This document shows positions 30,976 to 34,305 of a DNA stretch of 64,000 nucleotides, in pieces. The notes under the pieces are model-generated. The model saw only the letters and a program-made list of their open reading frames with translations, was not told the origin of the DNA and searched no databases. This stretch comes from Escherichia coli (lineage in GTDB: Bacteria > Pseudomonadota > Gammaproteobacteria > Enterobacterales > Enterobacteriaceae), in assembly GCF_003334405.1 (NCBI RefSeq), contig NZ_QOWM01000001.1; one strand, 5' to 3'. The position numbers and the translations under genes were made by a program. Within the stretch, counting starts at the first letter, position 1. Every line of letters begins with the position of its first letter.

Positions 30976-31716
30976 ATGCTGCAAAATATTCGAATTGTGC
31001 TGGTGGAGACGTCACACACCGGCAATATGGGTTCTGTTGCCCGTGCCATGAAAACAATGGGATTAACCAATCTGTGGCTGGTTAATCCACTGGTGAAACC
31101 CGACTCCCAGGCGATTGCCCTGGCAGCAGGGGCCAGCGATGTGATTGGTAATGCTCACATCGTCGATACGCTCGACGAAGCGTTAGCCGGTTGTAGCCTG
31201 GTGGTGGGCACCAGCGCACGTTCCCGCACGCTGCCATGGCCGATGCTCGACCCGCGCGAATGCGGCCTGAAAAGCGTCGCTGAAGCGGCAAATACCCCGG
31301 TGGCGCTGGTGTTTGGTCGCGAGCGCGTCGGCTTGACCAATGAAGAGTTGCAGAAATGCCATTATCATGTCGCGATTGCGGCTAACCCGGAATACAGCTC
31401 GCTGAACCTGGCGATGGCGGTTCAGGTTATTGCCTATGAAGTGCGCATGGCCTGGCTGGCAACTCAGGAAAACGGCGAGCAGGTCGAGCATGAAGAGACG
31501 CCGTATCCGCTGGTCGATGATCTGGAGCGTTTTTATGGTCATCTGGAACAAACGCTGCTGGCAACCGGTTTTATCCGTGAAAACCATCCGGGGCAGGTGA
31601 TGAATAAATTGCGCCGTCTGTTTACCCGTGCGCGCCCGGAAAGCCAGGAGTTGAATATCCTGCGCGGGATTCTGGCTTCTATTGAGCAGCAGAATAAAGG
31701 TAACAAGGCCGAATAA
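30976..31716 (+). CDS. trmJ: tRNA (cytidine/uridine-2'-O)-methyltransferase TrmJ
   Basis: 246 aa, SpoU-class methyltransferase fold ([19 protein letters not shown]...). Confidence 0.9.
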
Positions 31717-31717
31717 C

Positions 31718-31900
<183 letters not shown>

Positions 31901-31942
31901 ACAGGTACAAACGCCACGATAAAAAAATGGCACTGAAGGTTA

Positions 31943-32000
31943 AATACCCGACTAAATCAGTCAAGTAAATAGTTGACCAATTTACTCGGGAATGTCAGAC
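31943..32000. promoter_or_regulatory. iscR promoter with IscR type-1 box-like sites
   Basis: ATACCCGACTAAATCAGTCAAGTAA and AAATAGTTGACCAATTTACTCGGGAATGTCAGACT resemble the IscR type-1 consensus (ATASYYGACTRwwwYAGTCRRSTAT), 80-130 nt upstream of the iscR start. Confidence 0.5.
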
Positions 32001-32076
32001 TTGACCCTGCTATGCAATACCCCCACTTTTACAATAAAAAACCCCGGGCAGGGGCGAGTTTGAGGTGAAGTAAGAC

Positions 32077-32565
32077 ATGAGACTGACATCTAAAGGGCGC
32101 TATGCCGTGACCGCAATGCTTGACGTTGCGCTCAACTCTGAAGCGGGCCCGGTACCGTTGGCTGATATTTCCGAACGTCAGGGAATTTCCCTTTCTTATC
32201 TGGAACAACTGTTTTCCCGTCTGCGTAAAAATGGTCTGGTTTCCAGCGTACGTGGACCAGGCGGTGGTTATCTGTTAGGCAAAGATGCCAGCAGCATCGC
32301 CGTTGGCGAAGTAATTAGCGCCGTTGACGAATCTGTAGATGCCACCCGTTGTCAGGGTAAAGGCGGCTGCCAGGGCGGCGATAAATGCCTGACCCACGCG
32401 CTGTGGCGTGATTTGAGCGACCGTCTCACCGGTTTTCTCAACAACATTACTTTAGGCGAACTGGTTAATAACCAGGAAGTGCTGGATGTGTCTGGTCGTC
32501 AGCATACTCACGACGCGCCACGCACCCGCACACAAGACGCGATCGACGTTAAGTTACGCGCTTAA
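32077..32565 (+). CDS. iscR: Fe-S cluster-sensing transcriptional regulator IscR (Rrf2 family)
   Basis: 162 aa, [20 protein letters not shown], cluster-ligand cysteines in [13 protein letters not shown]. Confidence 0.95.
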
Positions 32566-32676
32566 TAAAAAGAATTCAGAATCAGGCCGGAGTGCTAAAT
32601 ACTCCGTAAACACGGTCGTACATCCAGCCGGTAGCCTGATTCCTTGCATTGAGTGATGTACGGAGTTTATAGAGCA

Positions 32677-33891
32677 ATGAAATTACCGATTTATCTCGAC
32701 TACTCCGCAACCACGCCGGTGGACCCGCGTGTTGCCGAGAAAATGATGCAGTTTATGACGATGGACGGAACCTTTGGTAACCCGGCCTCCCGTTCTCACC
32801 GTTTCGGCTGGCAGGCTGAAGAAGCGGTAGATATCGCCCGTAATCAGATTGCCGATCTGGTCGGCGCTGATCCGCGTGAAATCGTCTTTACCTCTGGTGC
32901 AACCGAATCTGACAACCTGGCGATCAAAGGTGCAGCCAACTTTTATCAGAAAAAAGGCAAGCACATCATCACCAGCAAAACCGAACACAAAGCGGTACTG
33001 GATACCTGCCGTCAGCTGGAGCGCGAAGGTTTTGAAGTCACCTACCTGGCACCGCAGCGTAACGGCATTATCGACCTGAAAGAACTTGAAGCAGCGATGC
33101 GTGACGACACCATCCTCGTGTCCATCATGCACGTAAATAACGAAATCGGCGTGGTGCAGGATATCGCGGCTATCGGCGAAATGTGCCGTGCTCGTGGCAT
33201 TATCTATCACGTTGATGCAACCCAGAGCGTGGGTAAACTGCCTATCGACCTGAGCCAGTTGAAAGTTGACCTGATGTCTTTCTCCGGTCACAAAATCTAT
33301 GGCCCGAAAGGTATCGGTGCGCTGTATGTACGTCGTAAACCGCGCGTACGCATCGAAGCGCAAATGCACGGCGGCGGTCACGAGCGCGGTATGCGTTCCG
33401 GCACTCTGCCTGTTCACCAGATCGTCGGAATGGGCGAGGCCTATCGCATCGCAAAAGAAGAGATGGCGACCGAGATGGAACGTCTGCGCGGCCTGCGTAA
33501 CCGTCTGTGGAACGGCATCAAAGATATCGAAGAAGTTTACCTGAACGGTGACCTGGAACACGGTGCGCCGAACATTCTCAACGTCAGCTTCAACTACGTT
33601 GAAGGTGAGTCGCTGATTATGGCGCTGAAAGACCTCGCAGTTTCTTCAGGTTCCGCCTGTACGTCAGCAAGCCTCGAACCGTCCTACGTGCTGCGCGCGC
33701 TGGGGCTGAACGACGAGCTGGCACATAGCTCTATCCGTTTCTCTTTAGGTCGTTTTACTACTGAAGAAGAGATCGACTACACCATCGAGTTAGTTCGTAA
33801 ATCCATCGGTCGTCTGCGTGACCTTTCTCCGCTGTGGGAAATGTACAAGCAGGGCGTGGATCTGAACAGCATCGAATGGGCTCATCATTAA
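32677..33891 (+). CDS. iscS: Cysteine desulfurase IscS
   Basis: 404 aa from the ATG at 32677 ([16 protein letters not shown]...). PLP lysine (SGHK) and active-site Cys loop SSGSACTS. Confidence 0.95.
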
Positions 33892-33918
33892 TCGGTATCG
33901 GAATCAGGAGAATTTATA

Positions 33919-34305
33919 ATGGCTTACAGCGAAAAAGTTATCGACCATTACGAGAATCCGCGTAACGTGGGTTCCTTTGACAACAACGACGAGAACGTCG
34001 GCAGCGGCATGGTGGGGGCACCGGCCTGTGGCGACGTGATGAAGTTGCAGATTAAAGTCAACGATGAAGGTATCATTGAAGACGCGCGTTTTAAAACTTA
34101 CGGCTGCGGTTCCGCTATCGCTTCCAGCTCCCTGGTCACCGAATGGGTGAAAGGGAAGTCTCTCGACGAAGCGCAGGCGATCAAAAACACCGATATTGCT
34201 GAAGAACTTGAACTGCCGCCGGTGAAAATTCACTGTTCTATTCTGGCAGAAGACGCGATCAAAGCCGCCATTGCGGACTATAAAAGCAAACGTGAAGCAA
34301 AATAA
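33919..34305 (+). CDS. iscU: Fe-S cluster scaffold protein IscU
   Basis: 128 aa, conserved Cys ligands and LPPVK motif. Confidence 0.95.
   Translation: MAYSEKVIDHYENPRNVGSFDNNDENVGSGMVGAPACGDVMKLQIKVNDEGIIEDARFKTYGCGSAIASSSLVTEWVKGKSLDEAQAIKNTDIAEELELPPVKIHCSILAEDAIKAAIADYKSKREAK

Follow-up and report, generated by a model that had tools for sequence, protein, structure and literature searches.

What controls the relative output of iscR and iscS in Escherichia coli is a question raised by the two elements that flank iscR, a pair of boxes resembling IscR type-1 sites upstream of the gene and a strongly structured spacer between it and iscS. Our analysis and the literature together make it very likely that the locus is the E. 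coli iscRSUA control region, in which IscR type-1 repression is combined with spacer-dependent mRNA stability. The operators and the folded spacer belong to a well-studied region, and everything essential about it has already been published or curated (RF01517; IscR type-1 sites A and B). Our own computations established which locus this is and covered the matches to the operator consensus together with their conservation, Rfam membership, the fold, covariation, complementarity to RyhB and the absence of a terminator.

Many E. coli chromosomes share positions 31700-32900 of the window, by which we mean the whole 64 kb stretch of DNA that was analysed, at 100% identity, and there the RefSeq annotation gives trmJ, iscR and iscS. 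An earlier note made from the sequence had delimited a 111-nt iscR-iscS spacer at 32566-32676, and both the list of open reading frames and the RefSeq boundaries of identical E. coli loci agree with it: the iscS ATG lies at 32677, and in RefSeq loci with the same spacer iscR ends and iscS starts exactly at the spacer borders. The features discussed below are collected in Table 1.

Table 1. Features of the iscR-iscS control region, with base-pairing of the spacer helices across 34 distinct spacers
Feature	Position	Strand	Basis and remarks	Paired (34 spacers)	Compensatory pairs (34 spacers)
IscR type-1 predicted site A, ATACCCGACTAAATCAGTCAAGTAA	31944-31968	+	1 mismatch to 25-bp consensus		
IscR type-1 predicted site B	31969-31993	+	3 mismatches to consensus; contains -35-like TTGACC at 31973-31978		
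Candidate -10 hexamer CAGACT	31996-32001	+	17 bp after TTGACC; weak, 3/6; positional conservation		
iscR CDS	32077-32565	+	162 aa; ORF list and RefSeq annotation of identical E. coli DNA		
iscRS "iscR stability element", RF01517	32566-32675	+	138.1 bits, model 1-110 of 110, E = 3e-37		
Rfam outermost 5-bp helix AAUUC/GAGUU	32573-32577 with 32663-32667	+	Rfam consensus and MFE fold; covers the Shine-Dalgarno sequence; one pair broken in 24/34 sequences	77.1%	1
Core bifurcated stem-loop	32579-32642	+	9-bp stem enclosing two hairpins; fold and covariation		
Outer 9-bp stem, GAAUCAGGC/GCCUGAUUC	32579-32587 with 32634-32642	+	Rfam consensus	100%	3
Hairpin 1, CGGAGT...ACTCCG	32588-32606	+	Inside the 9-bp stem	95.6%	4
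Hairpin 2	32610-32632	+	Inside the 9-bp stem	93.5%	3
Small 3' hairpin, UGCAUUGAGUGAUGUA	32645-32660	+	Just upstream of the iscS Shine-Dalgarno sequence; Rfam consensus and RNAalifold; nearly invariant, so that covariation says nothing either way	99.3%	0
Predicted RyhB pairing region	32650-32680	+	RyhB nt 39-68, -22.9 kcal/mol; covers Shine-Dalgarno sequence and AUG (32677-32679)		
iscS Shine-Dalgarno GGAG	32662-32665	+	After the small hairpin		
iscS CDS, cysteine desulfurase	32677-33891	+	ORF list; RefSeq iscS start directly after the 111-nt spacer		

Predicted IscR operators and the iscR promoter

A 25-bp type-1 IscR consensus, ATASYYGACTRWWWYAGTCRRSTAT, is available from work in E. coli (PMC6599224). 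When it was used with at most 3 mismatches, sites A and B were the sole matches in the 64 kb of the window and no match appeared in 100 dinucleotide-preserving shuffles, and the two sites abut exactly. For the comparison of promoters we used the 105 analysable iscR upstream regions among 120 loci, which had been fetched by means of an anchor in the N-terminal coding sequence of iscS. An orthologue of site B was found in almost all 105 loci, including those of Pseudomonadales and Alteromonadales, making it the most conserved block of the promoter, and in most Enterobacterales loci an orthologue of site A lies exactly 25 bp upstream of it; the tandem arrangement is kept in about 100 Enterobacterales and gammaproteobacterial loci. 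The earlier note had seen two type-1-like boxes at 31943-32000 and had suggested a motif scan as a check; the boxes correspond to these two matches, which the shuffles do not reproduce and which are conserved across Enterobacterales.

We take CAGACT as the -10 hexamer because similar hexamers occur at the same position in other genera, the orthologues at this offset from site B being CACAAT, CATACT, CAAACT or GAAAAT. This suggests that CAGACT is the -10 of the iscR promoter, and we infer a transcription start near 32008-32009. A simple sigma-70 consensus scan of 31650-32750 called no promoter, since this -10 is too weak for its rule. The layout is the same as in P. aeruginosa, with site B overlapping the -35-like hexamer and site A upstream of it, and the paper that describes it also mentions a minor E. 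coli IscR site C (PMC6599224). Repression of PiscR by [2Fe-2S]-IscR through type-1 sites has been reported (PMC12594620, PMC5040110, PMC6599224). Compared with the type-1 operator pair of the E. coli iscR promoter we found no difference, there being here too two abutting matches to the 25-bp consensus. Giel et al. 2006 and 2013 reportedly deal with this pair of sites in E. coli.

Two other features were observed around the promoter. Between the trmJ stop codon and the operators lies a REP/BIME cluster (31692-31932) with several matches on both strands to RF02564, the REP-derived naRNA4 model, the best of which, at 31778-31849, reaches 72.2 bits and exceeds the gathering score. The iscR 5' UTR contains a stem-loop, CCCC-GGGCA-GGGG (32041-32055), preceded by an A-run; by its score on the minus strand it resembles an intrinsic terminator. 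Its stem is kept, with variable loops, in Enterobacteriaceae only, and taken alone it is not unusually stable (z = -0.95); Enterobacteriaceae have about 40 nt more between site B and the iscR ATG than Serratia, Providencia or Photorhabdus.

A conserved bifurcated stem-loop in the iscR-iscS spacer

The spacer is matched over the full length of the Rfam model RF01517, on the coding strand and between the iscR stop (32565) and the iscS start (32677), with a score far above the gathering score of 40 bits (Rfam release 15). Position, helices and the 111-nt length are the same as in the family, and nothing substantive is different. The ViennaRNA fold reproduces the consensus structure of RF01517: the folding energy is -31.5 kcal/mol (z = -3.08) for the spacer as a whole and -25.6 kcal/mol (z = -4.67) for its core, 32579-32642, the latter a stability that none of 200 shuffles attained. 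By themselves, neither the 3' segment (z = -0.46) nor the small hairpin folds stably.

The earlier note had called the spacer strongly structured and had proposed that it contains a processing, stability or differential-expression signal, and the stable fold, the full-length RF01517 match and the literature on the locus are all in line with this. Its detailed pairing scheme held in part. The complementary segments that it had named are GAATCAGGCCGG (32579-32590), CCGGTAGCCTGATTC (32628-32642) and CGGAGTgctaaatACTCCG (32588-32606), two of which overlap at CGG (32588-32590). Of the proposed nested pairing between GAATCAGGCCGG and CCGGTAGCCTGATTC the first 9 bp form the outer stem, but the CCGG extension does not form, its residues being used by the two inner hairpins, and two further hairpins, including the small one at 32645-32660, had been missed.

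Conservation of this structure was examined in sequences cut from the iscR stop to the iscS ATG in the 120 loci of the genome-collection scan. The resulting alignment holds 34 distinct spacers from about 20 genera of Enterobacteriaceae, gathered independently and anchored on the iscS coding sequence and not on the spacer. The spacers of Enterobacteriaceae, 97-242 nt long, show homology to that of E. coli over their final ~110 nt. On the Rfam structure 93.9% of the cells of the 34-spacer alignment form a standard pair, as against 32-48% when the 3' partners are slid by 1-3 columns, and 11 pairs (40 cells) are changed on both sides; none of 500 shuffles reached any of the five covariation measures. 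RNAalifold, run on the alignment without the Rfam structure, recovered the outer stem, hairpin 1 and the 3' hairpin. Of hairpin 2 it found the core, with the register slightly displaced and the two basal pairs absent, and it did not predict the outermost Rfam helix, which is poorly supported in our 34-species alignment. The 9-bp stem and its inner hairpins are conserved by covariation; a lack of such covariation in other enterobacteria had been named beforehand as what would speak against the structure.

Within the family, divergent members (Buttiauxella, Shimwellia, Franconibacter and isolates labelled Enterobacter sp. Ag1 and R1(2018)) retain hairpin 1 together with the outer stem, at scores of 41-54 bits, and the RF01517 score falls below the threshold in Mangrovibacter, Cedecea neteri and the LSJC7 group. 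In Serratia, Dickeya, Photorhabdus, Xenorhabdus, Morganella, Proteus and Budvicia the spacers are 47-75 nt long and without the stem-loop, and no RF01517 match was found in the eight non-Enterobacteriaceae loci scanned with Rfam. The 3' block GAAGUGAUGUACGGAG...AGAGCA, which carries the Shine-Dalgarno sequence, is common to more taxa than the stem-loop. The pattern as a whole points to a greater age of the segment for ribosome binding and sRNA targeting, and the bifurcated stem-loop looks like an addition specific to Enterobacteriaceae.

Predicted RyhB pairing at the iscS start

Complementarity to RyhB was assessed with the RyhB sequence of the MG1655 record (NC_000913.3), in a windowed duplex scan with its core, nt 31-68. 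The best local site lies over the iscS start and is predicted to consist of three blocks. GAGCAAUG (32672-32679), which includes the iscS AUG, is predicted to form 8 contiguous bp with RyhB CAUUGCUC (nt 40-47), and GGAGU, with the Shine-Dalgarno sequence, is predicted to pair with RyhB GCUUC (nt 53-57); the third block, GAGUGAUG at 32651-32658, consists mostly of G-U pairs and varies between GUGAUG and GCGAUG among genera. GGAG and AGAGCA are invariant in 34 of 34 species. In energy, this best local site stands no higher than the top 1.5% of the windows in the 64 kb, and by itself the duplex computation is weak evidence for pairing. An unrestricted full-length RNAduplex of RyhB against 200 nt proved uninformative, yielding an end-to-end duplex of -54.7 kcal/mol that was no better than shuffles.

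Published work describes the same arrangement. RyhB pairs upstream of iscS, according to PMC5040110, which cites Desnoyers 2009, and the predicted duplex over the iscS Shine-Dalgarno sequence and AUG, a comparison that the earlier note had put forward, is as published. In three papers, again citing Desnoyers 2009, the iscSUA part of the transcript is degraded and the iscR part stays stable, with the iscR-iscS structure held responsible (PMC12533949, PMC5040110, PMC7038943); the sRNA-dependent discoordinate regulation of iscR versus iscSUA that the earlier note had given as known for this operon is in line with these papers. Two of them treat iscRSUA as one transcript that is cleaved once made (PMC12533949, PMC5040110). 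FnrS and OxyS act on the iscRSUA transcript too (PMC12533949).

Alternative readings of the spacer

Another reading is that the spacer mainly controls iscS translation, as a switch that occludes the Shine-Dalgarno sequence or as an RNA thermometer like the Yersinia-type IscS-1 intercistronic thermometer, and not as 3' protection of iscR. The outermost helix indeed covers the Shine-Dalgarno sequence in both the Rfam consensus and the MFE fold, and a thermometer, RF02783 ("IscS-1 ICR thermometer"), occupies the same junction in Photorhabdus, Serratia and Dickeya. However, the helix that pairs with the Shine-Dalgarno sequence is the least conserved (77% paired) and is absent from the RNAalifold structure, the 3' segment has no stable fold of its own, and the helices with covariation are located at a distance of 20 to 80 nt upstream of that sequence. 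The RF02783 model finds no match in 31000-34000 even at E <= 1, and membership of the spacer in this thermometer family was rejected on that ground, the matches of 69-138 bits being those of Photorhabdus (L004 1238-1415), Serratia (L010 3676-3859) and Dickeya (L016 7514-7700). The two families share the junction and the 3' block with the Shine-Dalgarno sequence, but RF02783 is a different model and its taxa have 47-75-nt spacers without the bifurcated stem-loop. We consider a mainly translational role of the E. coli spacer unlikely. As a side observation, RF01517 and RF02783 appear as taxonomically complementary occupants of one junction, with only the 3' Shine-Dalgarno block in common.

Two further readings concern the origin of the structure and its effect on transcription. 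The literature uses the term REP secondary structure for the spacer element (PMC7038943), genuine REPs lie just upstream (31692-31932), and the spacer is a hotspot for insertions, an ERIC-like one being present in 491 of 5426 genomes of E. coli, all of which would fit a copy of a dispersed REP/BIME repeat that landed between iscR and iscS and serves as a generic stabiliser without a dedicated role. Yet blastn, within its sensitivity, finds the spacer once, and always at the same locus, in 5425 of 5426 complete E. coli genomes, the naRNA4 model detects the neighbouring REPs and no similarity in the spacer, and the spacer is orthologously conserved with compensatory changes across genera of Enterobacteriaceae. 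With one copy per genome and no naRNA4 match we rejected the identity with a dispersed REP, and a generic repeat is a highly improbable explanation. Still harder to credit is that some of the transcripts stop after iscR at an intrinsic terminator or attenuator. A stable GC-rich hairpin does follow directly after the stop codon, but no hairpin is followed by a U-run, and a terminator scan of 32566-32676 found no terminator-like site, on which basis the candidate was rejected; the operon is, moreover, described as one iscRSUA transcript with post-transcriptional cleavage in PMC12533949 and PMC5040110.

Variation of the spacer within E. coli

The spacer is unusually variable within the species, more than one third of the complete E. 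coli genomes being at most 90-95% identical to the window: identity over the 111 nt is at least 99% in 2169 genomes, 95-99% in 1242, 90-95% in 1547 and 80-90% in 467. In five loci that we aligned the flanks are near-identical; among the five spacers the differences of the non-insertion alleles are concentrated in hairpin 1, and the insertion allele differs also at the 5' end of the spacer. Hairpin 1 occurs in E. coli (window 32588-32606; loci L123, L124, 301-411) as two compensated alleles, CGGAGUGcuaaaUACUCCG in the window and K-12 and CGGGGCGuaucgCGCUCCG, present in E. albertii too, its base-pairing being kept by compensatory changes.

A 129-nt ERIC-like insertion was observed between the iscR stop codon, which it follows directly, and the stability element in 9% of the complete E. 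coli genomes (491/5426), for example in E. coli N96 (L122 172-300), and also in loci L003, L020, L039, L026, L119 and L084. The same insertion is present at the same site in Citrobacter werkmanii, C. youngae, Enterobacter asburiae, some Rahnella and others. It matches what we take to be the ERIC1R and ERIC2 primer sequences at 18 of 22 positions each. Elsewhere in the window, positions 37679-37793, downstream of a small ORF (37472-37672) at the end of the isc cluster, are 67.8% identical over 115 nt to the insertion and are probably a resident ERIC/IRU copy.

It is conceivable, if on the whole doubtful, that the two forms of hairpin 1 and the ERIC-like insertion of about 9% of genomes tune the iscR:iscSUA ratio between strains. 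If the amount of iscR mRNA that survives RyhB-triggered cleavage does depend on these variants, iron-starved strains would differ in their switch from ISC to SUF.

Discussion

The features described here very probably serve control of the operon at two levels. At the level of transcription, the two abutting predicted type-1 sites span the region from upstream of the -35 to just before the candidate -10, and [2Fe-2S]-IscR would bind both of them and repress its own operon when the supply of Fe-S is sufficient. Under iron starvation RyhB, together with Hfq, would base-pair with the start region of iscS, over both its Shine-Dalgarno sequence and its AUG, and block iscS translation, and this pairing would trigger RNase E-dependent decay of iscSUA. 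The iscR fragment would keep the stem-loop at its 3' end and be protected by it from 3'-5' exonucleases, such that iscR mRNA, and hence apo-IscR, could persist and activation of suf would be possible. IscR binding, the dependence on RyhB, Hfq and RNase E and the protective role of the structure come from the literature or by inference, the mechanism being taken from papers that cite Desnoyers 2009.

The iscR stability element itself is reportedly the subject of Desnoyers et al. 2009 (EMBO J 28:1551). By analogy, it may follow the same logic as the intercistronic REP of malE-malF, where an intercistronic stem-loop acts as a barrier to 3' exonucleases and prolongs the life of the upstream cistron; the term REP is applied to the iscR-iscS structure in PMC7038943. 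In contrast to the malE-malF REP, which is a dispersed repeat, the iscR-iscS element is single-copy and locus-specific, and its effect would be coupled to sRNA-triggered cleavage. To this known picture the present analysis makes modest additions, namely the taxonomic limits of the element, an outermost Rfam helix that is poorly supported, the distinction from a dispersed REP, and the variants found within the species.

For the biology of E. coli, the locus stands as a textbook case of discoordinate operon regulation, in which the cistron of a transcription factor outlives its operon partners. Cleavage triggered by an sRNA downstream of a protective RNA would in this way drive the switch from ISC to SUF Fe-S biogenesis during iron starvation.
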